64,000 nucleotides of DNA from a virus. Taxonomy: Duplodnaviria > Caudoviricetes. This document shows positions 7,771 through 22,548 of this stretch, one piece after another (the first letter of the stretch is position 1; the number at the start of each line of letters is the position of its first letter). The translations under genes were made by a program, and so were the position numbers. The notes below the pieces were generated by a model. The model saw only the letters and a program-made list of their open reading frames with translations, was not told the DNA's origin and ran no database searches. Location of the stretch: IMG/VR virus record IMGVR_UViG_3300020308_000002, positions 10,576-74,575 of that record. One strand, given 5' to 3'.

Positions 7771-9923
7771 TAACGACCTCTGATACGACGTAGTTTTTGA
7801 ACAAAGTCCATATCTGAATATTTGTTCAGTAATTCATCAACTTTTGCTTGCCTAACCAAATCAACGTATTCATTGGTTGTAGGTCTCATTCCTGCTGGGA
7901 CGTTGGCCTGACTTACCGAAGGTTTCCTATTTATATTTGCGTCCGGGCTGGGGTTTACAGGAGCGTTCTGGGCTTCAGGAGTGTACAGATTAGGGGCTCC
8001 TGCGGCTCTAGCGTCTCTGACTATTTGAAGCATGCGTTCTTTGAGTCCCATCTTGTCTCTGAACGCATCTCGTTCTAGAGGAAAACGATCTGTCGCTAAA
8101 GGAGAGAAGTTCACTCTTTCTGCACTTCCAAGCATTCGATCTATATCTCTTCCTTCTTGTAACTGATCAAGTAAGTCTTGTAAAGGATTGCCAGTAATAG
8201 TAACCATTGGTTTTCCTTTTTGGTATTGCTTAGCTGGCTTTGTAACTTGCATCAAGCGTTTTTGCATGTCACCCAAGATTGGATCTTGCAATTTGAAGTT
8301 TGAAACTAATTGCATACCAGTTATATCTTCTAATAAGTTATTAATTGTGAGATATCCTTGATTAGTTATGCGACTAGTTCCAAGTCTTACTGTTGTTTCT
8401 CCATCTGACTGACCACGTCCCAAAGGAATTACTCTTTCGTCGTTTAAAAAGAATTGATTAGGAGAATTTTCATATTTACCGGCTCTCACATCCAAATTTG
8501 AGCTTGGAATAGATACTACAGGAGCTAAATTTCCACGAATTATCGCATTAATTGCTTCTCCTAATGTTTGTGCTTGACTTTGAGGTCTACCACTAGTCCT
8601 GTCTGGGACAAAATAAGACAAACCATATTTCTCAGCAATATCAATCGGTAGTCTTGCACTTGGATCAAGCAATTCCAACCTGACTGCTGTTGGGTTAAAG
8701 CGTCTTGTTCCTTTTTGACCAACAGTATATGTAGAAGGCTGCCTGACACCAGTACCCTCGGCAACCATCATTTTTTGTCTGCGTGTTTCTTCAGGCGTTG
8801 ACCCGAGCGGTTCGATTGTCTGAGTTTGCAGATCGTAGAATTCGCCAGCCGGAGCCATCAAAGCAGGTACAACATAAGGACCAACCGCAGTCCGTGACTG
8901 TTTTAGCTTGTCATTAGGGGCTACTCCTATTTTTGCAAGTTGATCATAGTCTTGAACCATCTGAACAGTGGGAACTTCCTTGAATTTCTCGGAATCAGCT
9001 CTTAAATATTTCCCTTCAGGGTCGTCATAAGAAGTCGCCACTCCTGACTCAGGACCAATCTCTCCAGATCTACCTAATCTTGCTAAGACACCTTCGGGGC
9101 GCGTTGATGGATCTTGTATAACTCTTTGATTATCTAATAAATAGTTAACTCCTTCTCCACTTAATTCGGGCATTGCAGACTTTAACTGCTGTGAACGAGT
9201 TTCTGCAGGTCCTACTTGTCTTCCTTCTGCAGCAGATGGACCGTAATCCCAGTTTGCATACCTTTTTATTAGTTCTTCTTGTGGTTTTAAGTCTGTTTTT
9301 TGTTGCAAAGTCTCTTTACGCACGTCTCTCAGAGCTTTTTCCATTCTTGGATCCCTCTGAGTAGGGTATTTTGCTTGTGTTTCTGAGAAAAAGTCTTTAG
9401 TAGGTACAGGTTCCTTGTCAGGTCTGTAAACACCAACCATTTTGTAAGGCATTTGCTTGCCTGTTCTGCCAGAGTATTCGCCTGTGTCTGGAAAATTTCC
9501 CCTTGGAGGGACAGATGGAGAAATTTCGTCAGTTTTTCTAGCAGGGATTGGTGTTAAAACGCCGCCTGCCGTGTTGTTTTCTTTATTAGGTTGAATAATA
9601 CGACCACCCGCACCCCTGTTTGGAGTAAATGCAAAATCTCCAGAAGGTGTTGCACGAGTTTTCTCAGGCATTACATAAGTGCCTGTGTCTGGATTTATAG
9701 TTCTACGAGTATTTTCGGGTTGCTGTTGTTGTGGAGAACCAAATATTAAGCCTTGCCTACCTCTTTTTTCTACTTCGGCTAAATTCTCTGCTGCAGTTTG
9801 TCCTCTATACGGCGCGGCGCTTTCTTCTACTAGCTTTTGCAGGCGTTTGAGTTGATCTCCTTCGGGGCGACGTCTGTCGTCTTTGTCATCCCAGAACCTA
9901 AAGTTGCCGATACCGCCAAGCAT
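7770..9923 (-). CDS. Large Pro/Gln-rich hypothetical protein, first gene of the minus-strand block
   Basis: 717-aa ORF; no recognised domain. Confidence 0.8.
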   Translation of the reverse strand: MLGGIGNFRFWDDKDDRRRPEGDQLKRLQKLVEESAAPYRGQTAAENLAEVEKRGRQGLIFGSPQQQQPENTRRTINPDTGTYVMPEKTRATPSGDFAFTPNRGAGGRIIQPNKENNTAGGVLTPIPARKTDEISPSVPPRGNFPDTGEYSGRTGKQMPYKMVGVYRPDKEPVPTKDFFSETQAKYPTQRDPRMEKALRDVRKETLQQKTDLKPQEELIKRYANWDYGPSAAEGRQVGPAETRSQQLKSAMPELSGEGVNYLLDNQRVIQDPSTRPEGVLARLGRSGEIGPESGVATSYDDPEGKYLRADSEKFKEVPTVQMVQDYDQLAKIGVAPNDKLKQSRTAVGPYVVPALMAPAGEFYDLQTQTIEPLGSTPEETRRQKMMVAEGTGVRQPSTYTVGQKGTRRFNPTAVRLELLDPSARLPIDIAEKYGLSYFVPDRTSGRPQSQAQTLGEAINAIIRGNLAPVVSIPSSNLDVRAGKYENSPNQFFLNDERVIPLGRGQSDGETTVRLGTSRITNQGYLTINNLLEDITGMQLVSNFKLQDPILGDMQKRLMQVTKPAKQYQKGKPMVTITGNPLQDLLDQLQEGRDIDRMLGSAERVNFSPLATDRFPLERDAFRDKMGLKERMLQIVRDARAAGAPNLYTPEAQNAPVNPSPDANINRKPSVSQANVPAGMRPTTNEYVDLVRQAKVDELLNKYSDMDFVQKLRRIRGR

Positions 9924-10716
9924 CCTATTTATACGAGTTATATCTGTATTACAAGTCTACCGAGTCGTTAAAGGCGTTAGCCCTGGTTTTCTGATGTTAA
10001 GCGGCGGATAAGCGCTTCGTAGCTCTTTATCGCGTTTTCTCCTCATGAAGCGTTTTAACTCCCCTTAAGAGGGCCTCGCGGGAAAATCTCGAAAAATGTT
10101 GCTCAGCGAGATATACATCAAACACCCTCGCCTAGTTGAAGCACCGCTCAAACAAAAAAAAGAAGGGCATATGTAATGAAGCGACGCAGCAAATGTTAAA
10201 CAGCAGAAGACTTATGTTAGTTAATTGTTTAACAACAGAAGAACTATCTGACTACGTTTAATGTTTAGCTGCGGAAGTTTGCGTTGCGACGTGTTACGCG
10301 ACCGCGTTCAAGGGTGCAATCCATAGTTATCTTTTGCATAATCTATTGTTTCCCTTACGAGCCTGAGTTAGCAACAGTTATCCCACGCATCCCCGCATAC
10401 ATAGCGCATTTATCGCACTGCCCCTTCTTCGCTCTCTCGAGGGCGTCAAACCCTGTGACACTAGGCTAACACGTACCCAGTTGCTAACCGCTGCGCTCGT
10501 TTCACTCGCTTGCTTATAATGATTCACTCCAAATTGCTACGCAATTGAGTTCACTTTTCCCATGGCTCCCCATGCGCTCGCTAATGCTCGCTTTGTGTTC
10601 GCATTTTGAGTTACCTGTTTACATTGTGACGATCACGCCTACTGTTTAGTAGATTAGTTGACAAATATAGCTACTTTGTGGAGATAATGCAAGTTTTGAT
10701 GTTAGTGCGATGTTAA
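9924..10716. other. Non-coding divergence region between the late block (leftward) and early block (rightward); candidate genome terminus/control region
   Basis: About 790 bp with no convincing ORF; short GCTCG(C/T)T repeats at 10493-10510 and 10574-10602. Confidence 0.5.
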
Positions 10717-10738
10717 TGCAGTAATTCAACAATGCATT
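10717..10738 (+). promoter_or_regulatory. 22-bp early motif, copy 1
   Basis: TGCAGTAATTCAACAATGCATT directly before ATG 10739. Confidence 0.8.
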
Positions 10739-10987
10739 ATGTCTATCCAAGTTAAGAGTATTACAACTAGCACCGCTAAGTATGTATACAGCTTGAACAA
10801 GGAATTTAAGACTTGCGTGATCACTTACCTGCCTAAGGCTAAGAATCCACGCAATAAGGTGTATGCTCAGTGCTCGCTGTTGATGTCCCTTGAAACAGCC
10901 AAAGAGCACTGGAAGAAGACCCAGACCTTGGCTGGTCATCCCAGATACACCACTAAGAAGGTCAAGAAACTCCCTGCCGCTAGGTAG
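10739..10987 (+). CDS. Early hypothetical protein
   Basis: 82 aa, flanked by motif copy 1 and a terminator. Confidence 0.75.
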   Translation: MSIQVKSITTSTAKYVYSLNKEFKTCVITYLPKAKNPRNKVYAQCSLLMSLETAKEHWKKTQTLAGHPRYTTKKVKKLPAAR

Positions 10988-10995
10988 GGTTTTTT
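10972..10995 (+). terminator. Intrinsic terminator
   Basis: CCCTGCC-GCTA-GGTAGGG then TTTTTT. Confidence 0.8.
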
Positions 10996-10997
10996 AT

Positions 10998-11019
10998 TGG
11001 ACTAATTCAACAATGCATT
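10998..11019 (+). promoter_or_regulatory. 22-bp early motif, copy 2
   Basis: TGGACTAATTCAACAATGCATT directly before ATG 11020. Confidence 0.8.
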
Positions 11020-11244
11020 ATGAAATCATCTTCGATTCTCTATCCTATTTGTGTTTTTTGTTTCTCTTGGGGAACAATCATGTTAGTAAACCAGCTTGTG
11101 ACTGGCTTGTCTGCCTCTACTCAAATGCAATGCGCTGGAGCGGAGTATTTGAGAGGCGATCAACGCGCTCAAAAGCTGGCTTTAGTTGAGTTTTGCCGCG
11201 ATAATGGTTACTACGTTGGTAAGCATTTGCAGCAAGAGCAATAA
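11020..11244 (+). CDS. Early small membrane protein
   Basis: 74 aa, N-terminal hydrophobic helix, C-x20-C. Confidence 0.7.
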   Translation: MKSSSILYPICVFCFSWGTIMLVNQLVTGLSASTQMQCAGAEYLRGDQRAQKLALVEFCRDNGYYVGKHLQQEQ

Positions 11245-11250
11245 CCCAAA

Positions 11251-11285
11251 GCCCCTGTCTAGGTCGTCCTGGATGGGGGTTTTTT
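11251..11285 (+). terminator. Intrinsic terminator
   Basis: CCCCTGTCTAGG-TCGT-CCTGGATGGGGG then T-tract. Confidence 0.8.
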
Positions 11286-11287
11286 AA

Positions 11288-11309
11288 TGTAGTAACTCAA
11301 CAATGCATT
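11288..11309 (+). promoter_or_regulatory. 22-bp early motif, copy 3
   Basis: TGTAGTAACTCAACAATGCATT directly before ATG 11310. Confidence 0.8.
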
Positions 11310-11465
11310 ATGAATGAGTTGTGGGCAGTCATCCTAGATAGGAAGTTTTCTAGCTTCCATCGATCTAGAGAGGATGCAGAGTCTGAAGCATTCTTGCTTG
11401 AGGTCGTCCTGTGCGAACCTAATAAACCTAGTCATATCGTTGACTACGTTCAGTTATCTGCTTAA
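11310..11465 (+). CDS. Early small protein (MNELWAVILDWKFSSFHRSREDAESEAF..., 51 aa)
   Basis: Translated by hand; below the ORF-track cutoff; flanked by motif and terminator. Confidence 0.7.
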   Translation: MNELWAVILDRKFSSFHRSREDAESEAFLLEVVLCEPNKPSHIVDYVQLSA

Positions 11466-11495
11466 GTACATCAGTACTACCCCTTATCCACTACG

Positions 11496-11540
11496 TTCCC
11501 CTCGGTCGGTCTGGTCTTCAGGTCGGTCGGGGGAATTTTT
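11496..11540 (+). terminator. Intrinsic terminator with a G-U-rich stem
   Basis: TTCCCCTCGGTCGGTCTG / CAGGTCGGTCGGGGGAA then TTTTT. Confidence 0.7.
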
Positions 11541-11542
11541 AG

Positions 11543-11564
11543 TGCAGTAACTCAACACTGCATT
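11543..11564 (+). promoter_or_regulatory. 22-bp early motif, copy 4
   Basis: TGCAGTAACTCAACACTGCATT, 19 nt before ATG 11584. Confidence 0.8.
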
Positions 11565-11583
11565 ATTCTCTCTATCCACCACC

Positions 11584-11763
11584 ATGGTTAACGATTTAAT
11601 TACTGAGTATCTTGCTCAAGAGGATCACGCTTTGTTTTCCCTTCTTAGAGCCACTAGTAATTATGCGGCAAGTCTTGGTACCACTGACGAGTTTAACTAC
11701 AGGTCGACTGTAGCCCTCCGAGCTCGTTCCTTCGGTATCGACCCAGCCGCCTTCCTCGATTAG
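11584..11763 (+). CDS. Early small protein (MVNDLITEYLAQEDHALF..., 59 aa)
   Basis: Translated by hand; flanked by motif and terminator. Confidence 0.7.
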   Translation: MVNDLITEYLAQEDHALFSLLRATSNYAASLGTTDEFNYRSTVALRARSFGIDPAAFLD

Positions 11764-11782
11764 GTCAGCCTATCCCATGTAT

Positions 11783-11815
11783 CCCCTGCCAGTTCTAGCT
11801 GGTGGGGGTCTTTTT
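11783..11815 (+). terminator. Intrinsic terminator
   Basis: CCCCTGCCAGT-TCTA-GCTGGTGGGG then TCTTTTT. Confidence 0.8.
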
Positions 11816-11817
11816 AT

Positions 11818-11839
11818 TGCAGTAATTCAACACTGCATT
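11818..11839 (+). promoter_or_regulatory. 22-bp early motif, copy 5
   Basis: TGCAGTAATTCAACACTGCATT, 21 nt before ATG 11861. Confidence 0.8.
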
Positions 11840-11860
11840 GTTCTCTATCTCCACCTAAAA

Positions 11861-12307
11861 ATGGTTGCAACTCCAACTAAAACTCCTGCAAAAGCATCCG
11901 CCAAGGCTGCTACTCCAGAGCGTATCGATGATGACGTCGTTATTGTCGGTCTGCTCAAGAACACACAGGAGTTTATTGGGCAAGGTGAAAACGCTAAGCG
12001 TCAAGCCAAAGGCTTCCTTAGCTGCAGTTCTACTGACACCTTCAATGATCAGAAGATCAACATCGACTTACCTGTCGACAACTTTATTGCTAGTGACAAC
12101 GGTGTTCCATTAGCCCAAGAGTTGCTTGATTTACAAGCCAAGCACTCAGAAAAAGGCCAGTGGGTCAAAGTTGCCTTAAAAGGCTTCTGGGTTCCTTCTT
12201 CTAGCCCACAGTTAATGGGAGGCTACATGAAGGCTCAGTACAAGGCTCTTAGAGTTAAGAGTTACAAGATCATCAGATCTAGTCTTGACAAGCCTGTCAC
12301 TAAGTAA
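11861..12307 (+). CDS. Early hypothetical protein (MVATPTKTPAK...)
   Basis: Start moved to ATG 11861 because the track start lies inside the terminator. Confidence 0.75.
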   Translation: MVATPTKTPAKASAKAATPERIDDDVVIVGLLKNTQEFIGQGENAKRQAKGFLSCSSTDTFNDQKINIDLPVDNFIASDNGVPLAQELLDLQAKHSEKGQWVKVALKGFWVPSSSPQLMGGYMKAQYKALRVKSYKIIRSSLDKPVTK

Positions 12308-12314
12308 CTTACTT

Positions 12315-12344
12315 GCCACCTAGCTTCGGCTGGGTGGCTTTTTT
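12315..12344 (+). terminator. Intrinsic terminator
   Basis: GCCACCTAGC-TTCG-GCTGGGTGGC then TTTTTT. Confidence 0.9.
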
Positions 12345-12346
12345 AT

Positions 12347-12368
12347 TGCTCCAACTCAACATTGGTCA
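12347..12368 (+). promoter_or_regulatory. 22-bp early motif, copy 6 (variant flanks)
   Basis: TGCTCC-AACTCAAC-ATTGGTCA; the last A is the A of ATG 12368. Confidence 0.65.
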
Positions 12369-12637
12369 TGAGGTACAACGACATAACTGGTCAGCCACAG
12401 CCTGGTCAGTCCACTGAAACTTTTATTCCTTTTGGTTGCATATCAGCCAAAGAAGCTTTATTACTCATAGATGCTATGCAACGATCTAATGCGAGAGGAT
12501 TAGAACGTGTACATGCTGAGATGATTAGAGCTGTTGAATGTTATTTCGATCATACGGATAATAAGGTTCGTGAACTTGACAACTGTGAAACCAAGCTCAA
12601 GCAGTACGCTAAGCAACAACAGAAGGTGAAATCATGA
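12368..12637 (+). CDS. Early hypothetical protein
   Basis: MRYNDITGQ..., 89 aa. Confidence 0.7.
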   Translation: MRYNDITGQPQPGQSTETFIPFGCISAKEALLLIDAMQRSNARGLERVHAEMIRAVECYFDHTDNKVRELDNCETKLKQYAKQQQKVKS

Positions 12638-12810
12638 GTGACCGACGTGGTCTCGAAGGTCTTCCTAAGAAGATCAACCCTGCTAAGACTGAATGGATAG
12701 GCACTCACCTAACTACCAGTCTTTACGAGGAAGAAGAGATTCCAGACAGAGAAGGCTATGCCGCAAGCTGTCTAATGGAAGACGATACTCTTGATGAATC
12801 CCACATATAG
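12634..12810 (+). CDS. Early small acidic protein (MSDRRGLEGLPKK..., 58 aa)
   Basis: ATGA overlap with the previous gene; ends just before a terminator. Confidence 0.65.
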   Translation: MSDRRGLEGLPKKINPAKTEWIGTHLTTSLYEEEEIPDREGYAASCLMEDDTLDESHI

Positions 12811-12816
12811 ATACAC

Positions 12817-12843
12817 AGCTCCACCTTCGGGTGGGGCTTTTTT
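12817..12843 (+). terminator. Intrinsic terminator
   Basis: AGCTCCACC-TTCG-GGTGGGGCT then T-tract. Confidence 0.9.
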
Positions 12844-12845
12844 AT

Positions 12846-12867
12846 TGCACTAACTCAACAGTGCGTC
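12846..12867 (+). promoter_or_regulatory. 22-bp early motif, copy 7
   Basis: TGCACT-AACTCAAC-AGTGCGTC, compensatory change in the flanking inverted repeat. Confidence 0.75.
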
Positions 12868-12885
12868 CTCCTACTTACTATTCAA

Positions 12886-13278
12886 ATGACACCACCTAAC
12901 TCAAAGTGGGACATTGCACCTGTTCAGCCCGGTGAACTGGTTGACTATGACCCAACTAACCACGACACTAGTAATAAGTACGAAAATTTCAAAGAATCCT
13001 TCTTAAATTTCTCTACTCAATTCCTTTTTGTCTGTTATTTCATGGCTCGCTTCACTCAAGAACTTTGCCATAAGCTTTTACCTCCTATTGTTCGCTTCCT
13101 CTGGCAGATCAAGAAGCTAGCAGCTAGGTATGAATCTTGGGCAAAGAAGAACAAGCCATTTATGCAAATTATTGAATATCTATACAGTTTTAGAAGAGAA
13201 GACTATTGGGTCGGAAAGACCAAGACTGGACGATTACAGAAGCCTGATGGCACCTTCCTCAAGAAGACTAAACCCTAA
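12886..13278 (+). CDS. Early hypothetical protein
   Basis: 130-aa ORF after motif copy 7. Confidence 0.7.
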   Translation: MTPPNSKWDIAPVQPGELVDYDPTNHDTSNKYENFKESFLNFSTQFLFVCYFMARFTQELCHKLLPPIVRFLWQIKKLAARYESWAKKNKPFMQIIEYLYSFRREDYWVGKTKTGRLQKPDGTFLKKTKP

Positions 13279-13487
13279 GCCCCGTATGCCACTTCAGGTT
13301 GATAACTGCCTGACATTGTATATTCAGGTTCACTATTCTCAGGAGACATAGCATTGAAAGTCTTCTGTAAAGACGGTATCAACTTGTCACTCCTAAAGCT
13401 TCGACGCAGGCTATCCAAGTTACCATCCTTCAAACCTTTTTTCAGGTCAAGATCAAATAATTCTCCTGCAAATCTTAGGTCGTCCAT
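13275..13487 (-). CDS. Hypothetical protein
   Basis: 70 aa, converges on the 12886 gene. Confidence 0.5.
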   Translation of the reverse strand: MDDLRFAGELFDLDLKKGLKDGNLDSLRRSFRSDKLIPSLQKTFNAMSPENSEPEYTMSGSYQPEVAYGA

Positions 13488-13511
13488 TCTTTATCCTCTC
13501 TTACTTGACAA

Positions 13512-13620
13512 ATCCGAACAGTCTCCTGCTGAGATATATAGGCAGAAGAGTGAGTATTCCCATGAGCCTCCATGGAATACAAGATCTTTCTTGCCATGTC
13601 ACATTCAGCAGGAGTTGGAT
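13512..13620 (+). ncRNA. Candidate rod-like structured RNA
   Basis: Nested stems ATCCGA/TTGGAT, CTCCTGCTGA/TCAGCAGGAG, GATAT/ATGTC, GGCA..GAG/CTT..TGCC and GTATTCCCATG/CATGGAATAC. Confidence 0.45.
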
Positions 13621-13626
13621 TTTTAA

Positions 13627-14232
13627 TCATACTAAAGTGTTTGCTCTGTCAACAATTTGCTGCTCTGTGCTTTCTACGTAAGCCATAAGATCAAGTAGTC
13701 CTGAGCCTGCTGCAGTCAAAGCGGAACCTCCCGCTACACCAGCTACACCTGCTCTTGCTACTTGTGCTTGTCTAAATGATGCTGTCCTCTGATCTGGAGA
13801 TCCTCCCATAAATGTCAAGGCGTCACCCACTGCTCCTGCTATATCTGCTCTTGTATTAGGCATTCCACCTAAAGCCGCTTGTATAGCAGTTCTGTCTCCT
13901 GGCTGTACTTGAGATAATACTGCCTTGGCATCTGCTGAGAAAGCGTCTGGATTAGTAATCATCCGAACAGGATTCCTACTCTGTCTTGCAACAATCGCTT
14001 CTGCAAGGCGTTGTTTATCCTGTTCTCCTATTAACTCATCTGTAGCAGCCTGAATCCGAGCATTCGTTCTGTTGGCACCAAAGTTGCTAACGTTTGCACC
14101 TGCTTCACGCAAAGCTTGAGCTATTGAAGCATCAGCCTGACCAACAGAAGGCACAGCATTCTGAGCAGCTAAATACCTTTTATTAATAGCTTGCTGTAAT
14201 TGGTTAAGTCGAGTCTGTGGATTGATGTTCAC
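13627..14232 (-). CDS. Hypothetical Ala/Gln-rich protein with a C-terminal Gly/Ala hydrophobic segment (late-type gene inside the early block)
   Basis: 201 aa, GTG start; composition resembles 48495-49415 and 7047-7556. Confidence 0.7.
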   Translation of the reverse strand: MNINPQTRLNQLQQAINKRYLAAQNAVPSVGQADASIAQALREAGANVSNFGANRTNARIQAATDELIGEQDKQRLAEAIVARQSRNPVRMITNPDAFSADAKAVLSQVQPGDRTAIQAALGGMPNTRADIAGAVGDALTFMGGSPDQRTASFRQAQVARAGVAGVAGGSALTAAGSGLLDLMAYVESTEQQIVDRANTLV

Positions 14233-14249
14233 GCCTTAAAAATTCTATC

Positions 14250-14277
14250 AATACATCTATATTAGGTGTATTTTTTT
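14250..14277 (+). terminator. Terminator-like hairpin
   Basis: AATACATCTA-TAT-TAGGTGTATT then T-tract. Confidence 0.6.
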
Positions 14278-14279
14278 GG

Positions 14280-14301
14280 TGATCTAATTCAACAATGCAT
14301 T
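14280..14301 (+). promoter_or_regulatory. 22-bp early motif, copy 8
   Basis: TGATCTAATTCAACAATGCATT. Confidence 0.75.
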
Positions 14302-14347
14302 TTATGTATTATTGCGTAGATCTTCTGTTCACAACTACCAAACACCT

Positions 14348-14770
14348 ATGACCCTACACTTGGGTACTAAATCGTTCTCGTTCTTCATCAGACCAGACGT
14401 ATTTAATAAGACTGGTTTAATATCAGTCGGTTTCTGCCGTAACAGGCACACCAAAGCCTGCATGGAAGATCACATCACTCTTGGTGCAAGATCTGACACG
14501 CTTGCTGAATTCGTTGCCAACGAAGATCCAACAAACACTTGTTCTGTTGACGGCAAGACATACTCAGCCAAGTCAATTGGTTGGGGTCGTGATGAACATG
14601 GTAATCCACAGAAGATTACATACTCAGCCGAGGAGATTGCAGCGAGAGCCAAGCTACGTGCTATCAACAAAGCCGAGGAAGAACTCAGGCGTCAGAAATT
14701 AGATCTCGAGATCAACAATGTTGACGCTGACTCCGAGATTGTAGTTGACACCTTTTCTACACCCGCGTAA
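14348..14770 (+). CDS. Early hypothetical protein (MTLHLGTKSFSFF...)
   Basis: ATG 14348 chosen; track ORF opens at TTG 14312. Confidence 0.7.
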   Translation: MTLHLGTKSFSFFIRPDVFNKTGLISVGFCRNRHTKACMEDHITLGARSDTLAEFVANEDPTNTCSVDGKTYSAKSIGWGRDEHGNPQKITYSAEEIAARAKLRAINKAEEELRRQKLDLEINNVDADSEIVVDTFSTPA

Positions 14771-14947
14771 CTAACCGCGTAACTAGATGATGCTGGCGTT
14801 GTCGTTCTGCTGACATGACAGCGCCAGCTCTACCCAATCCTTGATTTCTGCGGCATCATTCGCAAGCAGCATATTTAATTATGAATATAAATGAATTTAG
14901 TCCTGTTGCGGATAGTCCACGCAGTCAACACCTGCTTGAACTTATTG

Positions 14948-15304
14948 ATGCCATCAAACAATCTCAAGCAACTTTACGATCTTCGGGAGACTCAAAGAAT
15001 CAAGGAAAGATTGACACACTCATTAACACAATCAACAGGAAACTTTATGCATCCTGAAGATCGGTATAGAATCAACCCCTTTCGTGGCGACTTCAAACGC
15101 CTATTTATTCATGACCTCAAAACAGACCTCGCCTGGGTCGAAGACTTCGACTGTGAAATCGACGCAGGAAACCACTGCCTCAACATCTATTCCAGTGAGT
15201 ACTTCGAAGGTACTCTCGAAAGATCTAAGGCACCGAATCAGCTCATTCGACTTAGCTCTTCAACATCAGAGCTCACTCAAAGACCTAGACCAAGCAATAG
15301 TTGA
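14948..15304 (+). CDS. Hypothetical protein
   Basis: Start uncertain (14891/14948/15047); tail overlaps the next gene. Confidence 0.5.
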   Translation: MPSNNLKQLYDLRETQRIKERLTHSLTQSTGNFMHPEDRYRINPFRGDFKRLFIHDLKTDLAWVEDFDCEIDAGNHCLNIYSSEYFEGTLERSKAPNQLIRLSSSTSELTQRPRPSNS

Positions 15305-15797
15305 TCTAGAGAGTGAAGATCCTGTTAAGAACCAAGAAGCTGTCAGCAAGATTGAGGTGTACTTAGCTGATAAAGAGAACTTCGAGAACAAGGCTACAGA
15401 CCTTCTCAACTTCTCGTTTGCTTTGATAGCTATGGCTAATGCAAAGAAAGCAGAAGCAGACAGGCTGAAGAAACTAGCTATCCCAGAGCTAGCTAAAGCT
15501 TATCGATTACAGCAGCTAGTAATCAGATTATTCAGGACAATCATTAACGATGACAACAAACTGACTAATTACAGATTGCCTATGCATACAATCAAATCCA
15601 TGATTACTTCGTCAGTACATGTGGATGAGTACCTTTGCGATCCCGATAGTTTGCCAGATGAATTCAAAAGAACCAAAACAACGGTAAACAAACAATCACT
15701 CAAAGAGGCTTTCAAAGCATCTATCAAGAACAAGACAAAATCTCCATCATATGAAGGAGTTGAATTCATCCAAGAGCGCCAATGGAGAGTTGAATGA
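15195..15797 (+). CDS. Siphovirus Gp157-family (Gam-like) protein
   Basis: AKKAEADRLKKL coiled coil, LPDEFKRTKTTVNKQSLKEAFK, and C-terminal YEGVEFIQERQWRVE; GTG start tentative. Confidence 0.7.
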   Translation: MSTSKVLSKDLRHRISSFDLALQHQSSLKDLDQAIVDLESEDPVKNQEAVSKIEVYLADKENFENKATDLLNFSFALIAMANAKKAEADRLKKLAIPELAKAYRLQQLVIRLFRTIINDDNKLTNYRLPMHTIKSMITSSVHVDEYLCDPDSLPDEFKRTKTTVNKQSLKEAFKASIKNKTKSPSYEGVEFIQERQWRVE

Positions 15798-16390
15798 GTG
15801 ACAAGTATGACTTCTTTGCCTCTACAAGCAAAGGAGCCAGTGAAGTAACTCTTACTCCAGTCTCCCCAGAGGCTATGAAGTTCATCCCTGAACTATTCCC
15901 TGATTTGAAACTCGGTCAGTCTGTGGTTTACAGCCTACGTGACCTGTATCAAATCGTTGACCTGTTTATTCCACCGCATTTTTCTATCAAATGGTTACCA
16001 CCACTCCGACCTCCGTCTTCATCTTCACCTCGAACCCCCAGCTCAGCGCCAAGCCAGCTCAGAGGCAAGACGGCATCCACTATGCCTATTACAACGCCCC
16101 AGCAAAAAACGGAGGAGGGGGAGAATGCTCCGTCAGCTTCCCCGAAAGCGTCAAAGACCATGTCAAGGTTGGGCAACCCTTCAGTGTTGACGGCACACCC
16201 ATCGCAGGACTTGGATACACCACTCGCATCCAATACGATGAGAGATACAAGTGTTCCATGCTCATATTTGACTACATCAAACAAGAAAGCCACCAAGAGG
16301 TGGAAGAAAGTGCTCCGTTCATATCAACACCTTTCCCTACCGAGGGATGGGGAGATGCAGACGGTATCACTGCAACTGCCCAGCCAGTAA
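15794..16390 (+). CDS. Hypothetical protein with a long Ser/Pro/Thr tail overprinting the next gene
   Basis: ATGA-coupled start; about 66 globular-looking aa followed by a low-complexity tail. Confidence 0.55.
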   Translation: MSDKYDFFASTSKGASEVTLTPVSPEAMKFIPELFPDLKLGQSVVYSLRDLYQIVDLFIPPHFSIKWLPPLRPPSSSSPRTPSSAPSQLRGKTASTMPITTPQQKTEEGENAPSASPKASKTMSRLGNPSVLTAHPSQDLDTPLASNTMRDTSVPCSYLTTSNKKATKRWKKVLRSYQHLSLPRDGEMQTVSLQLPSQ

Positions 16391-16680
16391 GGAACGGTAT
16401 TCCTAGAGCTGGAGTCAGAGCACCGCAAGCCAGAAGAAATGCAGCTCGCAGTGAAACAGAACACGCTAAACGTGTACGTGAAGCTGGTGATCGTTTAAAC
16501 CCACGATTCAAAGAGCTTCTTGACGAGTACATCAACGGTCAAGTCTATGCCGCAGGCAAACTTGGATGCAGAGAACCTATCCGTCAAGACACAATTCAGA
16601 AACATGTTACTTCAGTAGGTATTGCTTACGTTGACTATCTCAAGTCACAAGTGCAAACTGAAAACATCATTGAAGATTAA
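15991..16680 (+). CDS. Hypothetical protein
   Basis: 229 aa with normal composition. Confidence 0.7.
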   Translation: MVTTTPTSVFIFTSNPQLSAKPAQRQDGIHYAYYNAPAKNGGGGECSVSFPESVKDHVKVGQPFSVDGTPIAGLGYTTRIQYDERYKCSMLIFDYIKQESHQEVEESAPFISTPFPTEGWGDADGITATAQPVRNGIPRAGVRAPQARRNAARSETEHAKRVREAGDRLNPRFKELLDEYINGQVYAAGKLGCREPIRQDTIQKHVTSVGIAYVDYLKSQVQTENIIED

Positions 16681-16683
16681 CTG

Positions 16684-16926
16684 ATGACAAGTCACAAAGT
16701 TTTTGAATTTTCCTTGCTTTTTAGTAAAAAATGGCCTTTTATTCGAACTTCTACCAAAACATTGGTGGAATATGACAATACTTGGCCTATCAAAAGTGAC
16801 TATCCACCCCCATTCACCCTCGATTCCTACAACATCCAGTGTCAAGATGAAACATTTAACACAACCACGGTACACAACGTCATTTGTGAAGACTCTGAAC
16901 CCCAAAGTACAGTTTTTGTTGACTGA
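16684..16926 (+). CDS. Hypothetical protein
   Basis: 80 aa, begins 3 nt after the previous stop. Confidence 0.5.
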   Translation: MTSHKVFEFSLLFSKKWPFIRTSTKTLVEYDNTWPIKSDYPPPFTLDSYNIQCQDETFNTTTVHNVICEDSEPQSTVFVD

Positions 16927-17065
16927 GATTGCCAAAGACAGTCAATACGACGAAGCACAAGTGCTTGAGAAACTGGTGGGCAAGATGGAAAAATACGTTG
17001 CCAACGGAGGCAGCATTAAAGATTCAGTTAAAGATATCTTCGCTGGCATAGGTGCTGAATTATGA
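16847..17065 (+). CDS. Small helical protein (MKHLTQPRYTTSF...)
   Basis: 72 aa, ATGA-coupled to the next gene. Confidence 0.55.
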   Translation: MKHLTQPRYTTSFVKTLNPKVQFLLTEIAKDSQYDEAQVLEKLVGKMEKYVANGGSIKDSVKDIFAGIGAEL

Positions 17066-17331
17066 CTCGTGCCAAACACACTACATCCCTCCTTCGGGAG
17101 GGGCTTGGGGTCAAAGTCGCTATCGATGACACCGAGTTTCATGCTTGGATTCCTTGCAAGAATCCTTCCGAACAATGGTCAATGGATCCTAGGATTCGTT
17201 CCTATCTTTTCATTAAAGGAAAAGGAGGAAACATGAAAATATTAAAACTATCAGAAGCTTGTACAGAGATCCAATGTATCCAAGCTATGAGTACAGATAA
17301 GTCAGTTGTCGTTCAATCTTTAGTTCCATGA
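17062..17331 (+). CDS. Hypothetical protein
   Basis: 89 aa, ATGA overlaps at both ends. Confidence 0.65.
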   Translation: MTRAKHTTSLLREGLGVKVAIDDTEFHAWIPCKNPSEQWSMDPRIRSYLFIKGKGGNMKILKLSEACTEIQCIQAMSTDKSVVVQSLVP

Positions 17332-17540
17332 AACAACAACAAATCAAATTTCTCATCAAGCCAGATGGCACAGTTGACGAGGAAGTTATTGGTGTTACTT
17401 GCAATGAATGCACAGCAATTACCAAGCATGTAGAAGCTAACCTAGGCACCATAACTAAGGTGACTTATAAGCCTGATTACTATGCACCTTGTGAGATTCG
17501 AACCGTCACTCAACACGAGTCAGAGTCTCTCGTCGACTGA
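17328..17540 (+). CDS. DUF2997-family protein
   Basis: IKFLIKPDGTVDEEVIGVTCNECTAITKHVEANLG matches the cyanobacterial family pattern. Confidence 0.75.
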   Translation: MKQQQIKFLIKPDGTVDEEVIGVTCNECTAITKHVEANLGTITKVTYKPDYYAPCEIRTVTQHESESLVD

Positions 17541-17587
17541 GCTATTGATCATAGCTGGTACATAAAAACTCAACATTTCTTTATCTT

Positions 17588-17704
17588 ATGAGCTTCATAG
17601 ACTACATAGGATTCTTTTCTTTATTCATTATTCTTTATGGCATCCAGAGAAAAGCAATCCATCGACGTAACAACAGGAGAACATCAAATGCCAGTCATTG
17701 CTGA
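17588..17704 (+). CDS. Small membrane peptide (MSFIDYIGFFSLFIILYGIQRK..., 38 aa)
   Basis: Translated by hand; TM segment plus basic tail. Confidence 0.4.
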   Translation: MSFIDYIGFFSLFIILYGIQRKAIHRRNNRRTSNASHC

Positions 17705-17855
17705 CCAGCTACTACCTAGAGATGCTACTCAGTTAGATGAAGTAGATCAGTATCTAGAGTGTGCTACGGATTGTGCTATCAACGACAAGGATTGCAAAGA
17801 TGCCTGCTTAGAAGAAATGAAAGACGCCGCCCACTTAGACGTTCCTTCTTACTAA
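17688..17855 (+). CDS. Small Cys-rich acidic protein (C-x3-C-x6-C-x3-C)
   Basis: AGGAG Shine-Dalgarno before ATG 17688; DQYLECATDCAINDKDCKDACLEEMK. Confidence 0.65.
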   Translation: MPVIADQLLPRDATQLDEVDQYLECATDCAINDKDCKDACLEEMKDAAHLDVPSY

Positions 17856-18379
17856 TACTGATCTCTAATAACTGATCGAATCATCCAACAAGCTTTGGAT
17901 GTTTGAGCTAAGAGTTCAGCTAAATAGTTAGCAACATCATATAGGTCAGATGCTTCAACTGCTGGTTGAATCAATTTGATCATATTTTCTAGCGTCCCTA
18001 AGTTGTCGTAGTACACCTTAAGTTGAGCCGTGCCATCGTATGACTCAACATTTTTAAAACAAGAACCTAACGCATCCTTCAAACCACAGGCACACATCGG
18101 CATCCAATAATTCAAGATTCTTACAAATTCTCCTAATTGATCGAACTGTTCTAAATGCAGGTCATATTGATCTTTTAGGAAATTATGAATATCTAAGAAG
18201 TTTGAACCTTCGTAATTGAAGTGAATGAGATGTGATTGTGTCTGTAATTCCTTAACAAAAGAAGCTAATAAAACCAATTTCTGAGAAATATCACTGGATT
18301 GACAAGACTCTGGCTTGCTATTCATCATTAGCACTAGATTGTGCTGCTCAGGATTGTTTGAGGTCTCTGCTGTTTCCAT
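17852..18379 (-). CDS. dps: Dps/ferritin-like protein
   Basis: HLIHFNYEGSNFLDIHNFLKDQY...FDQLGEFVR matches the Dps HWNxxG..F..LH...E.Y...D..AER pattern; KACWMIRS C-terminus. Confidence 0.85.
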   Translation of the reverse strand: METAETSNNPEQHNLVLMMNSKPESCQSSDISQKLVLLASFVKELQTQSHLIHFNYEGSNFLDIHNFLKDQYDLHLEQFDQLGEFVRILNYWMPMCACGLKDALGSCFKNVESYDGTAQLKVYYDNLGTLENMIKLIQPAVEASDLYDVANYLAELLAQTSKACWMIRSVIRDQY

Positions 18380-18418
18380 AGGTTGACTGCTGTTGACCTT
18401 AGTTTAGGTTCTTAAGTT

Positions 18419-18440
18419 TGCAAACTTTCAACTATGCATT
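18419..18440 (+). promoter_or_regulatory. Degenerate 22-bp early motif, overlapped by the perfect palindrome AAGTTTGCAAACTT (18414-18427)
   Basis: TGCAAACTTTCAACTATGCATT, 15 nt before ATG 18456. Confidence 0.5.
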
Positions 18441-18455
18441 ATTTCTGCTTCGTTT

Positions 18456-19094
18456 ATGAACTCTGCAATTATTCAATCTCCAACAGGTATTCATCCTACG
18501 AGACCCAACCAAAAGATCCAAACTTATGGATTAGATCTTAATGCCCAATGGTTTGGCTGGGGTGCTAAAGCTGGTAGTCCAGAGTTTACTCTTGCTCCAG
18601 ATGAAGGCATTAGCTTCGTAGGTAAACCCATCGTTGGAATTGATTGGCATACAAGCCAAGGCGTCTCATGTCCTTACTTCAGGTTTGCTTTCCTTGAGCC
18701 AACTGAAGATCGTCAGACAAGACTGTCAGTAATCAAACTTAAATGCAATGGCAGTTCAACAAGTAACGGTAAGATCCTCGTGCAAAATCATGCTGCCTGT
18801 CTCGTTGGTGCTCTTCATGAGCTAGTACAACGAACCATCTTGTCCGACCTTGACTTGGAAGATATTTCAGGCACATTGTATGCAAGGAAAGGAGAAGGAC
18901 GTGAAGTTGTAAACCCAAGTACTGGCTTCAAAACCACGTTCAAAGGTACCTTCATCGATTGTTTCCTTGGCAACGATCAATTGCGATTCAAGCAAGCAGA
19001 TAGAGAACTCATGGCTTTCCAATCTCAAGTCAATGATCTCGCTGCCTCATTACACCAACCAGCTCCTTTTTTACAATCAGTTTCTGATGAATAG
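18456..19094 (+). CDS. Hypothetical protein
   Basis: 212-aa ORF. Confidence 0.75.
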   Translation: MNSAIIQSPTGIHPTRPNQKIQTYGLDLNAQWFGWGAKAGSPEFTLAPDEGISFVGKPIVGIDWHTSQGVSCPYFRFAFLEPTEDRQTRLSVIKLKCNGSSTSNGKILVQNHAACLVGALHELVQRTILSDLDLEDISGTLYARKGEGREVVNPSTGFKTTFKGTFIDCFLGNDQLRFKQADRELMAFQSQVNDLAASLHQPAPFLQSVSDE

Positions 19095-19353
19095 CCACAT
19101 ACACACCTCTAACGGAGAAGTTTTGGAAATCCCTGATTCAATTCCTCCAGCAAGCCTATCTCAGTACAGGCAAAAACATTTCCTCAAAGAAATAACTAAA
19201 CAGGAACTTCCCCCTGGAGGTGTCCTACCTAACTTGGAGTACATCCAATCTCATGTTCAAAGCATGAAACAAGAAGTTCCCACAATTCATCGACCTAAGG
19301 TCACTCGAATAGAGTTACTCATCGATGAAATGATTAATACATTAAACTCTTAA
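19087..19353 (+). CDS. Hypothetical protein (MNSHIHTSNGEVLEIP...)
   Basis: 8-nt overlap with the upstream stop. Confidence 0.6.
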   Translation: MNSHIHTSNGEVLEIPDSIPPASLSQYRQKHFLKEITKQELPPGGVLPNLEYIQSHVQSMKQEVPTIHRPKVTRIELLIDEMINTLNS

Positions 19354-19366
19354 TTGCATTCCCACC

Positions 19367-20458
19367 ATGAATCAATCACCAGCTACCGTCATGCCTTACA
19401 CCACCTCAGGGCTATGTACAAAAGATGTAGAAGATCCCGGCTCTGAAACTTTCAGGCCTGGCAAAGTCACTCGAGCAGACGCTAAGTTCTTCCAAGGACT
19501 TAAATCCGAATGTCGAGAATGGCAATCAACAGAAGAGCAATTGAAATCTATTGGTTGCAATTGGTTGGTCACTCCTGAACCTTTATATTCAAAAAGATAC
19601 GACAGAACATACCCCGAGATTGTTAATTGGTATACCAGTGATGGAGATCGACTAGGTCAATTCTCTAATTGCAGGCACATTATCCATCCTCAAGATGGTT
19701 TGAATTGGTACAAAGAGTTCATCCGTAAAACCAAAGCTGCTTTCTTGCAAGAACTCACGCTTGATGTCATAGGATATCTACCTGATCAAAGGGTTTTATA
19801 TTTTGCATCCAAGCTGACTGACATGAATCCTGAAAGGTTGAAAGAAGTTGGTGATACAACTGATTTCTTCCTCATGTTTAGTATCAATTACATGGAACCT
19901 AGAGCTATGAAAGCTCAGATCTGGGCTAACGAATTAGTCTGTGACAATGGCATGACACGTCGAATCAGAGATGGTCAGGCAACTATTAATCACAGAAAAG
20001 CTCGTGGAGAAGTTGATGTCTACCAAGCACTAGAAGCTGCTGTACTAGAAGCTAAGCGACATGTGTACATCAAGGAGAGTTTCATAGATACTCCTTGTGA
20101 TCTTTACGACGGAAAGAAATTAATTCGTACTTTCTTCAAAGATTTCATTCCAGAAGAAAATCGTAAATCTCAAATAGAGAATGTTTGGGAACCTGTGGAT
20201 TCCAGATATATTCAACAACTAGAGCATACTTACGTGCATGGCTTGATAGGTGGAGAATTAGAAACAAGAAAAGACAATCTCTTTCGTGTTCATTCAGCCA
20301 TAACCCAATTTACGAGCCACCATAAGCGAGTTAGAAACGGTGATGATTCTAGATTTGCCAAACAATTGGATGGCAACCTGTCAAGAATCAACACTCAGTT
20401 CACCAAGTTCCTACAGGAACAAACAACAGGTCACAATTACGATGCCATTTCGACGTAA
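19367..20458 (+). CDS. DUF932 / LGT_TIGR03299-family protein
   Basis: FLMFSINY...AQIWANELVCDNGM and ATINHR, family size and layout. Confidence 0.7.
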   Translation: MNQSPATVMPYTTSGLCTKDVEDPGSETFRPGKVTRADAKFFQGLKSECREWQSTEEQLKSIGCNWLVTPEPLYSKRYDRTYPEIVNWYTSDGDRLGQFSNCRHIIHPQDGLNWYKEFIRKTKAAFLQELTLDVIGYLPDQRVLYFASKLTDMNPERLKEVGDTTDFFLMFSINYMEPRAMKAQIWANELVCDNGMTRRIRDGQATINHRKARGEVDVYQALEAAVLEAKRHVYIKESFIDTPCDLYDGKKLIRTFFKDFIPEENRKSQIENVWEPVDSRYIQQLEHTYVHGLIGGELETRKDNLFRVHSAITQFTSHHKRVRNGDDSRFAKQLDGNLSRINTQFTKFLQEQTTGHNYDAIST

Positions 20459-20708
20459 ATCAGGAAAGACTGAAGGTCCCCGCTTTCAAGCAGGGGATCG
20501 AGTCTATAAAGCTAAGAATGGTAACACTGGACGGAAAGATGGAATCATCGTTTCACGAGAGGACATCAATTACAAAAATGGAGCCACTCATAAAGCTTAT
20601 TGGATTCGATTTGACAACAACCCTCGTTTACACCATCTTGAACAAAGACTCCTTAAACCAGTAGAAAATGGGCAAACACAAAAGGAAAACATACAGCCAA
20701 AAATATAG
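20442..20708 (+). CDS. SH3/KOW-like small protein
   Basis: FQAGDRVYKAK...GIIV...YWIRFDN. Confidence 0.6.
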   Translation: MPFRRKSGKTEGPRFQAGDRVYKAKNGNTGRKDGIIVSREDINYKNGATHKAYWIRFDNNPRLHHLEQRLLKPVENGQTQKENIQPKI

Positions 20709-20779
20709 ACTAAGAGAAGGTAGCTATAAGCGTTCCCTTCGCCACCAACTGAACACTGACGGTACCCACTTATTCCAAA

Positions 20780-20977
20780 ATGGACACATTGATGCTTCCG
20801 ACGTTAACGCCTCGAGAAAGATTCCTAATGCAAATAGAACAAGCAGCTAAAGCAGTTCTATCTAAGCAACCTAATGCCTTCTGTAACCTCTACCCCTTCT
20901 CATCCCAATGCCAGATCCCAACCACTTCTTTGAAGGTCGCAACCTTGAAGCCGACACAAAAGCAATACAAGAGTTAG
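20780..20977 (+). CDS. Hypothetical protein
   Basis: 65 aa; overlaps the next ORF. Confidence 0.4.
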   Translation: MDTLMLPTLTPRERFLMQIEQAAKAVLSKQPNAFCNLYPFSSQCQIPTTSLKVATLKPTQKQYKS

Positions 20978-21180
20978 TCGATAGACCACAAGATGTCGAG
21001 TACTCCATCTCTGAACTTTTGTTTATAAGGACAGCAATAGATCATGTACCAGCTACTAACAACGAAGAAAAGAAAGTTAAAGATACGATGATTTCTAAAA
21101 CTAATGCATTTGTAAAAGAGATCATGTATAGCAAGAACAAGACAAGAAACTCCCACTCCAGACTTGACCGACTAGATTAA
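20908..21180 (+). CDS. Hypothetical protein
   Basis: 90-aa helical ORF. Confidence 0.65.
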   Translation: MPDPNHFFEGRNLEADTKAIQELVDRPQDVEYSISELLFIRTAIDHVPATNNEEKKVKDTMISKTNAFVKEIMYSKNKTRNSHSRLDRLD

Positions 21181-21335
21181 GTTTATTGGCGTGGGAGTAC
21201 TAGGAGAATAAGGGAGTACTCCTTGTAAGCCCAAGCTAGATCCTCTGGGTTTGGTGGAGCTCAGAGGATTCCAGTCTTTACTTTACAAATCCACAAAGAT
21301 AAGTTACTCTCCTCTTGGGAAGTGAACAGCCTATT

Positions 21336-21370
21336 ACCCTCTCCGTCTTGCATAGCGGAGGGGGTTTTTT
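21336..21370 (+). terminator. Intrinsic terminator
   Basis: ACCCTCTCCGT-CTTGCATA-GCGGAGGGGGT then T-tract. Confidence 0.8.
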
Positions 21371-21372
21371 CA

Positions 21373-21394
21373 TGCAGTAATTCAACGATGCATT
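21373..21394 (+). promoter_or_regulatory. 22-bp early motif, copy 9
   Basis: TGCAGTAATTCAACGATGCATT directly before ATG 21395. Confidence 0.8.
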
Positions 21395-22089: not shown

Positions 22090-22548
22090 ATGTCAAACTT
22101 CACCAAAGACAAACAAGTCACATGGAATCCATTAGTCCTTGCCTACGAAAATGTAGAACAAGGTTACATGGAATTCAAATCAGAAGAAGAATTAAATATT
22201 TACAAGAAACAAATCAAGAACAGAGAGATCGTTGACTTAGCTACCGTTGAAGATGACAAAGATATAAAAGTTGAAATACAACAAACCACTTTATATGTGG
22301 CTTACCCTCGTAAAGATATTACGTTTAACTGCGATTTACCTGAGGATGAATACTACCCATTCGATAAGACCGAAGTAACTAGTCCAGAAGGTGACTCTTT
22401 CTCTAGTAAAACAGAGAACGAACAATTCGTTGGTGATGTGGTTACTAAATGGGCGGGAGTTCCAAAAGATACACCATTCAGTTCAGATCAAGAGAACACT
22501 TTCATGAAAATGATTAACAGCATTTTCGATAGCAAGGAGGAATCATGA
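22090..22548 (+). CDS. Acidic hypothetical protein
   Basis: 152-aa ORF in operon. Confidence 0.7.
   Translation: MSNFTKDKQVTWNPLVLAYENVEQGYMEFKSEEELNIYKKQIKNREIVDLATVEDDKDIKVEIQQTTLYVAYPRKDITFNCDLPEDEYYPFDKTEVTSPEGDSFSSKTENEQFVGDVVTKWAGVPKDTPFSSDQENTFMKMINSIFDSKEES

Follow-up and report, generated by a model that had tools for sequence, protein, structure and literature searches.

Promoter-early stem-loop (PeSL) elements are terminator-promoter composites of T4-type phages (Arbiol 2010, PMC2839356; Comeau 2014, PMC4122927), and their promoter part is of the sigma-70 type, TTGACA-N17-TATAAT or close variants (PMC4122927). Here, we describe an array of similar design in the IMG/VR virus record IMGVR_UViG_3300020308_000002 (74,575 bp; estimated completeness 88%), of which bases 10,576-74,575 form the 64,000-nt window to which the positions below refer. 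As in PeSL regions, a terminator stem-loop is followed by a promoter-sized element and one small ORFan gene, the unit is repeated in the early region, the consensus differs by phage lineage, and gene replacement is bounded by the elements. Lambdoid morons are likewise self-contained, swappable gene units. Unlike in PeSL elements, no -35/-10 pair fits here, and the element is an imperfect inverted repeat that abuts the ATG in half of the copies; moreover, PeSL phages are T4-type myoviruses with hyperplastic regions, whereas this phage is not T4-like. We tentatively favour the reading that the repeated motif restarts transcription as a lineage-specific promoter, with mRNAs that are leaderless or have short leaders, which would make this a PeSL- or moron-like array without sigma-70 boxes.

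Other described systems resemble the array in part. The early promoters of phage N4 are hairpins read by an injected virion RNA polymerase; their stem bases may vary if pairing is kept, and they have a 3-nt loop in a GC-rich heptamer centred at -11 (PMC4496689). The motif shares with them a promoter-sized inverted repeat around a conserved centre, located before early genes, and sigma-70 independence and a start a few nucleotides past the stem, as in N4, are proposed as further likenesses. N4, however, has 5-7-bp stems, three copies and a polymerase of ~3,500 aa with a T7-like domain, whereas the loop here is AT-rich and 8-10 nt long, half of the copies are unpaired, and the record contains no such polymerase gene. 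Promoters of T7-type single-subunit RNA polymerases are contiguous conserved blocks of 17-23 bp ending at the start site; here, a block of 16-17 nt (core, right arm and TT) is kept in all copies.

The stoperators of Cluster A mycobacteriophages (L5 and Bxb1) are co-oriented with transcription (PMC6550527). Like stoperators, the motif copies are many short co-oriented sites in short intergenic gaps, with a consensus that co-varies with phage lineage. Stoperators, in contrast, are 13 bp long and asymmetric, occur at 20-30 sites genome-wide, are not tied to terminators or start codons and have a known repressor gene; the sites here are restricted to the early 11 kb, and the 113 open reading frames (ORFs) of the record yielded no repressor family. 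In the lambda nut/N system and at the T4 translational operators, early messages carry, close to their start, a small hairpin whose loop is specific. Lambda gates its downstream genes by terminators and has one nut site per operon, and the product of its first early gene is small and basic. Here, by contrast, the motif follows every terminator, nine to eleven times per genome, and many copies lack a hairpin; homologues of N, RegA or similar proteins were not detected among the record's ORFs.

The motif array and its link to terminators and start codons

The array is real and conserved and, judged by the sequence comparisons below, clearly functional. It contains nine good copies, plus one to three degenerate ones, of the pattern TG-CAGT-AAYTCAAC-AMTG-CATT. 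The exact 22-mer pattern occurred 3 times (0.00 expected), and the 17-mer TAAYTCAACANTGCATT with at most one mismatch gave 7 forward and 0 reverse matches in the whole 74,575-bp record. Matching of the core TAAYTCAACA (at most one mismatch, read in context) recovered the nine copies listed in an initial annotation made from the sequence alone, with motif starts at 10717, 10998, 11288, 11543, 11818, 12347, 12846, 14280 and 21373. The degenerate copy listed there at 18419 is genuine and is conserved in relatives, and weaker copies lie at ~19343 and ~17566. Every copy is intergenic, on the plus strand and co-oriented with the early genes; none was found on the minus strand or within genes, the two places that the annotation had named as telling against its proposal. 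All copies are confined to the first 11 kb of the plus-strand early/replication module (~10,700 to 45,200), with none elsewhere in the 74.6 kb.

The 22-bp description captured the core pattern, but the full element measures ~24-26 nt and is an imperfect inverted repeat, AATGCAGT / ACTGCATT flanking AAYTCAAC, which had been missed. Its parts follow one another as a T-rich tract, WWTG, four variable bases, the core AAYTCAAC, four bases and CATT. Within the genome, the core, right arm and TT are kept in every copy and the left arm partly. The arms pair perfectly in copies 4, 5 and 7 (-6 to -9 kcal/mol) and partially in copies 1, 3 and 9, and they are unpaired in copies 2, 6 and 8 (about 0 kcal/mol). 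No Rfam match was obtained over 9.8-22 kb, and an IMG/VR scan for the exact 17-mer returned 27 single matches, approximately the chance level, five of these records being without an array.

Copies 2-7 and 9 begin 2-3 nt past the T-tract of hairpins with energies of -16.4 to -25.0 kcal/mol, and the motif follows all six of the strongest plus-strand terminators within 8-24 kb. Of the eight terminator hairpins initially claimed for the nine good copies, these seven are strong, whereas that before copy 8 is only weak (-8.1 kcal/mol); copies 1 and 10 have none. At copies 1, 8 and 10 the upstream neighbours lie on the other strand, so a promoter is logically required there, and of the elements at these divergent junctions, only the motif is shared by all lineages. 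Copy 10, for example, sits in a 76-nt divergent gap between a minus-strand Dps-like gene and a 212-aa gene, and all relatives have a motif at the orthologous site.

As the initial annotation had it, copies 1, 2, 3 and 9 are followed directly by the ATG, and in copy 6 the motif and the ATG share one base; in the remaining copies, a leader of 15-46 nt precedes the ATG. Because similarity to the orthologues begins at the cassette ATGs (e.g., MNELWAVI versus MESLWVVI), these are the true starts. The reported lack of a Shine-Dalgarno sequence is correct but uninformative, since 74 of the 91 other window genes also lack one.

The lack of a TANNNT box, also reported, applies to all copies but copy 3, which has TAATGT. 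In a consensus promoter scan, the only promoter-like site at the copies lay in the weak hairpin region before copy 8, and, read by eye, no register of the motif gives a TTGACA/TAnnnT pair at a workable distance from the ATG. The sigma-70-like TTGACA-N19-GATAAT before copy 1 is of doubtful role because it is not conserved in relatives. Immediately upstream of copy 1, a tandem ATGTTAGT / ATGTTAAT occupies the slot held by the terminator T-tract at other copies. The tandem is invariant in four lineages that have differing motifs, and it could be a regulator site. Its 11-nt periodicity recalls cyanobacterial Pho boxes.

Lineage-wide variation of the motif and its inverted repeat

The large terminase subunit and a 745-aa virion protein mark the record as a tailed phage, and its sole cultured relative is Synechococcus phage S-EIV1, with 50% identity on the 745-aa protein. 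A gene-free gap of 815 nt (9924-10738) separates the early module from a long structural/late module on the minus strand; the latter extends to 9923, with a 717-aa gene at that end. By gene set and size, the record fits the uncultured marine cyanophage lineage of Flores-Uribe et al., whose genomes of ~86 kb carry nblA, a split DNA polymerase and, in three of the four complete genomes, an integrase; that lineage has S-EIV1 as its closest relative and is set apart from known cyanophage families (bioRxiv 10.1101/325100). Its description mentions no promoter motif (bioRxiv 10.1101/325100).

Megablast against cultured phages and a search of IMG/VR with the 717-aa protein as anchor gave no match, and a metagenome scan returned only near-identical relatives with the same cassettes. 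The close relatives, L038-L040 (90-99% identity on the 717-aa protein) and the contig L057 (PAZU01000034.1), match the record in cassette content and order, and their motifs are nearly identical to those here. L057, a 48-kb contig, is filed in a 'Methanobacteriota archaeon' metagenome-assembled genome although it holds this near-identical cyanophage early array, a placement that is probably a binning error. At the position of the 815-nt gap, the more distant relatives G6, G7 and G8 hold two extra genes (~180-230 aa), one of which encodes a 2OG-Fe(II) oxygenase.

In G6 (L041), whose early proteins are 30-90% identical to those of the record, nine copies with the core AATTCAAT or AATCCAAT lie in the same places. 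G8 (L043) and G7 (L042) carry a second type (B) at orthologous positions, TG-TACC-(A/C)TYTCATC-RGTA-CATT (e.g., TGTACC-TTTCATC-GGTACATT), in ten and eleven copies, respectively; those of G8 are all on the early strand within ~10 kb of its 63.9 kb, with none elsewhere. In L053 (type C), the motif reads TGTACC-TTTTCATC-AGTAC, with stems of only 4 bp and a T-tract that runs straight into GTACC. In L055 (type D), it reads ACTGT-N9-ACAGT-GCAA-ATG, the repeat being re-formed in a shifted register.

In every copy of a lineage the motif changes in concert, which argues for a reader specified by the virus and against an ordinary sigma-70 promoter of the host. A separate version of the motif in all copies of each lineage is the pattern of phage-specific promoters. 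The position after terminators, the strand, the inverted repeat and the distance to the start codon are kept across types, and ~10 of 16 positions are common to them, following YTCAWCr-T-CATT. At orthologous genes, the distances from motif to ATG were 0, +2, 0 and -1 (cassette 1), -1, -3, +3 and +4 (cassette 6), 0, +4 and +3 (the GP88 gene), 18, 16 and 16 (cassette 7), and 46, 47, 39 and 37 (cassette 8). Over all genomes the distribution is two-peaked, with about half of the distances at -3 to +5 nt and most others at 14-24 nt.

S-EIV1 has six copies of an element of its own, the 25-nt GTCCyrrGCATGACryTAAACTGC, before early and middle genes. The copies lie 20-45 nt upstream of the genes, each with a TAnnnT-like box, and form an inverted repeat whose arms vary while complementarity is kept. 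To our knowledge, this element has not been described before. The S-EIV1 orthologue of the GP88-family gene, which stands behind copy 9 here, is preceded by this repeated element. The word ACTCAAC in S-EIV1 leaders was dropped as a counterpart of the motif, being common throughout that genome.

Arm pairing exceeded chance in all four genomes tested (inner four positions: 57-70% versus 37.5% expected; p = 3e-5 to 0.03 per genome). Between the type of the record (A) and type B, three of the six arm pairs differ on both sides (TGCAGT/ACTGCA versus TGTACC/GGTACA). About half of the copies pair poorly, and averaged over all copies, left arms fit the right arm of the other lineage almost equally well (4.45 versus 4.39 pairs), so the covariation rests on the well-paired copies. 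Some arm mismatches are G-T, which pair in RNA. A compensatory change in copy 5 of G6 was rejected as such; a swap of a whole copy-7-type unit accounts for it better. An inverted repeat with compensatory change keeps readings of the motif as an RNA element or as an operator alive.

A proposed restart promoter and the competing explanations

Among the models weighed, the promoter model accounts for the largest number of features. Each motif would mark the start of an independent early transcription unit, in which the terminator of the preceding gene is followed by a T-rich tract, a 24-nt lineage-specific promoter and the gene. The conserved CA-TT would be the place of restart, with transcription beginning at the 3' end of the motif or no more than ~3 nt from it. 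The mRNAs of about half of the genes would consequently have no leader or almost none (ATG at -3 to +5), and those of the rest G-poor leaders of 14-24 nt. The signal would not be of the sigma-70 type but would be read by a specificity factor co-evolving with the virus lineage, either a small factor redirecting the RNA polymerase of the host or an unrecognised polymerase that possibly enters together with the DNA. The inverted repeat, which is kept in part, may contribute to recognition, as in N4 hairpin promoters, or be an overlapping operator. If transcription did not restart, as many as seven terminators would stand before genes 2-8.

The location after terminators, the divergent junctions, the confinement to one strand and region, the kept distance to the ATG, the lineage-wide change, the S-EIV1 element before the orthologous GP88-family gene and the differing genes within one framework all speak for the restart promoter put forward in the initial annotation, but no candidate for its reader emerged. 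Other observations also weigh against a promoter. The bases just past the motif in leadered copies are mostly pyrimidines, at which transcription starts poorly, unless it begins at the conserved A in CATT, and the type C copies lack the terminal CATT. A plain promoter leaves the inverted repeat with compensatory change unexplained. Neither the 88%-complete record nor, as judged by size and homology, the 63.9-kb relative yielded a gene for a polymerase, sigma factor or activator, and the description of the lineage names none either (bioRxiv 10.1101/325100).

The idea that a phage RNA polymerase or activator yet to be recognised reads the motif, also part of the initial annotation, thus gained no support among the 113 ORFs. 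In these, Pfam and PHROGs searches detected no RNA polymerase, sigma factor, helix-turn-helix repressor, antiterminator or integrase family. Pfam on all window ORFs of at least 337 aa and on the 113 ORFs overall gave no PF00940 polymerase; a six-frame search for PF00940 gave no candidate either, a result that is weak alone because the search's control was also undetected. PF04542 (Sigma70_r2) had no match in the record. The largest ORFs (792, 745 and 717 aa) had no RNA_pol match, although the lack of a giant virion RNA polymerase is not absolute because the record is 88% complete. PF00589 (Phage_integrase) was absent from the record and three relatives, with the controls detected in 14 of 14 cases; given its occurrence in complete genomes of the lineage, an integrase may sit in the missing 12% of the genome.

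By position, the 717-aa first late protein is the best candidate for the reader. Its AlphaFold model was unusable (predicted local distance difference test score, pLDDT, 39), an ESM Atlas search with it gave no match, and it looks largely disordered. The gene (7770-9923, minus strand) is hypervariable: its product is 36% identical in G6 and is replaced by dissimilar proteins of 863 aa in G8 and 807 aa in G7, while neighbouring structural genes are 80-95% identical. A T4-type late promoter word, TATAAATA, lies 2 nt before its ATG (9926-9933, minus strand) and also upstream of two other genes. A 201-aa minus-strand protein (13627-14232) opposes the array and is present in all four lineages. Its body is fast-evolving, whereas the hydrophobic tail, rich in Gly and Ala, is conserved (...AGVAGGSALTAAGSGLLDLMAY...); the protein has no sigma-like appearance. 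An NtcA site, a sigma-54 promoter, a MotA box, an extracytoplasmic function (ECF)-type promoter and an antisense promoter were rejected as readings of the motif, since none fits in register.

A possible but rather unlikely alternative is that the motif acts as RNA, on read-through transcripts that start at a single promoter of host type before cassette 1. A small phage protein would bind a weak hairpin, conserved in its loop, either in short-range antitermination of the nut/N kind or in control of translation or processing by the AUG, as at T4 RegA/gp43 operators or T7 RNase III sites. The arm pairing above chance, the two-sided differences between types A and B, the re-formed repeat of type D and the G-T mismatches are all in line with an RNA hairpin, but the left arm is poorly conserved, copies 2, 6 and 8 and several copies per relative cannot fold, and the type C stems are very short. 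An RNA-binding protein of small size, with no new polymerase, would fit the empty gene search, and the first cassette protein is indeed small, basic and fast-evolving. The sigma-70-like element upstream of copy 1 could supply the single promoter, yet it is not conserved, its transcripts would have to read through up to seven strong terminators, and copies 8 and 10 could be reached only by antisense read-through of minus-strand genes. Moreover, known antitermination uses one site per operon, not one per terminator, and does not require the clustering of ATGs at the motif end.

It is improbable that the inverted repeat is a DNA operator for the repressor of a possibly temperate lineage, overlapping early starts or blocking elongation in the manner of a stoperator, with the lineage-specific arms as different immunity specificities. 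Many operators are likewise imperfect palindromes with one strong and one variable half-site, but here the asymmetric centre, not the half-sites, is most conserved. Lineage variants at syntenic sites are also known for the co-oriented stoperators of Cluster A (PMC6550527). An integrase has been reported in the lineage (bioRxiv 10.1101/325100), whereas none was found in the record and three relatives; the 113 ORFs hold no repressor-like protein by Pfam, although small ORFans could still contain one. An operator also leaves the confinement to the early 11 kb, the link to terminators and start codons and the identity of the promoter unexplained.

The comparison of cassette content bears out the earlier suggestion that single-gene modules are gained or lost, since related genomes have exchanged cassette genes for others. 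By Pfam and PHROGs, every cassette protein is an ORFan. The upstream terminator and motif of cassette 4 are homologous in this record and in G6; the gene behind them encodes 59 aa here, and that of G6 is unrelated, encodes 180 aa and has a weak, sub-threshold DprA-like match. Cassettes 1-4/5 contain unrelated genes in type A and type B genomes. The self-contained design of the cassettes implies that genes can be swapped. In addition, the unit before cassette 5 of G6 (arms and leader) resembles the copy-7 unit, which, at the sequence level, suggests that whole regulatory units are exchanged. That the motif is itself the core site of a site-specific recombination system (lox-, FRT- or att-like) moving the cassettes is very improbable: the arms-around-spacer form of integron-like or tyrosine-recombinase sites is matched (inverted arms of 6-8 bp flank an asymmetric 8-bp centre that does not vary between the copies within a genome), relatives differ in cassette content, and an integrase is reported for the lineage (bioRxiv 10.1101/325100), but no tyrosine recombinase was found in the record and three relatives, the breakpoints of the cassette-4 replacement lie at the motif 3' end and the next ATG rather than in the cores, cassette order is identical in all close relatives, and the fixed relation to terminators and start codons is left unexplained.

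Feature coordinates and meaning for cyanophage biology

The coordinates of the features are given in Table 1. The membership of the motif-like TAAACTCTTAATTGCATT upstream of the DUF932 gene in the motif family is doubtful. A 15-codon mini-ORF (14304-14351), not conserved in G6, begins 2 nt past copy 8, and its TGA overlaps the ATG of the 140-aa gene (ATGA). In the stem before copy 8, L038 has a T-to-C change that gives better pairing. The operon behind copy 9 contains three strong GGAGG Shine-Dalgarno sites (22530-22545, 22712-22727 and 23465-23480), which most genes of the phage lack.

Table 1 Features of the motif array, with window positions except for the S-EIV1 row, which refers to KJ410740
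Feature	Position	Strand	Description
Sigma-70-like TTGACA-N19-GATAAT	10658..10688	+	Upstream of copy 1; read by eye
Tandem ATGTTAGT / ATGTTAAT	10699..10717	+	11-nt period; adjoins copy 1; invariant in four lineages (alignment)
Motif copy 1 (AATGCAGT-AATTCAAC-AATGCATT)	10715..10738	+	No upstream terminator; ATG 10739, 82-aa gene
Intrinsic terminator after cassette 1	10972..10995	+	-16.5 kcal/mol and T6
Motif copy 2	10996..11019	+	Arms pair poorly; ATG 11020, 74-aa gene
Intrinsic terminator after cassette 2	11252..11285	+	-25.0 kcal/mol
Motif copy 3	11286..11309	+	ATG 11310, 51-aa gene
Intrinsic terminator after cassette 3	11499..11540	+	16-bp stem, -22.4 kcal/mol
Motif copy 4	11541..11564	+	Perfect 8-bp arms; 19-nt G-poor leader; ATG 11584, 59-aa gene
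Intrinsic terminator after cassette 4	11783..11815	+	-19.5 kcal/mol
Motif copy 5	11816..11839	+	Perfect 6-bp stem; 21-nt leader; ATG 11861, 148-aa gene
Intrinsic terminator after cassette 5	12315..12344	+	-21.3 kcal/mol
Motif copy 6	12345..12368	+	3' half degenerate (CAACTCAACATTGGTCA); ATG 12368 overlaps last base
Cassette 6 content			89-aa gene and Shine-Dalgarno-coupled 58-aa gene
Intrinsic terminator after cassette 6	12817..12843	+	-16.4 kcal/mol
Motif copy 7	12844..12867	+	Arms TGCACT/AGTGCG, both changed together; 18-nt leader; ATG 12886, 130-aa gene
Weak hairpin and T7	14250..14277	+	-8.1 kcal/mol; divergent gap before copy 8
Motif copy 8	14278..14301	+	Divergent junction; poor pairing; 46-nt leader; ATG 14348, 140-aa gene
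Degenerate copy 10 (TTTGCAAA-CTTTCAAC-TATGCATT)	18417..18440	+	ATG 18456, 212-aa gene
Weak motif-like TAAACTCTTAATTGCATT	19343..19360	+	6 nt upstream of ATG 19367, DUF932 gene; membership doubtful
Intrinsic terminator before copy 9	21336..21370	+	-19.8 kcal/mol
Motif copy 9	21371..21394	+	ATG 21395 starts long operon; first gene GP88-family
S-EIV1 element copies (L036/L037, KJ410740)	43007, 38804, 33597, 30508, 29164, 25914	minus	

The array is best filed under the terminator-promoter cassette design that is already known, the new part being a non-canonical, partly palindromic and lineage-varying signal. A more far-reaching interpretation, which we consider unlikely, is that a whole family of marine cyanophages transcribes its early genes from hairpin-type, non-sigma-70 promoters into leaderless mRNAs, through a polymerase or redirecting factor that has so far escaped recognition and that has co-evolved with at least four or five promoter types; in this phage family, described as widespread, such a reader would enter with the DNA or be made first.

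For the takeover of transcription by this abundant but uncultured cyanophage lineage, the array supplies a precise, short and strongly conserved candidate signal, accompanied by natural motif variants from at least four or five lineages. Should the motif work as an RNA site or as an operator, its copies would mark out the regulon of an early regulator. If it is a promoter, the PeSL/moron principle of swappable units would extend to a phage group with non-canonical recognition and leaderless cyanobacterial early messages.

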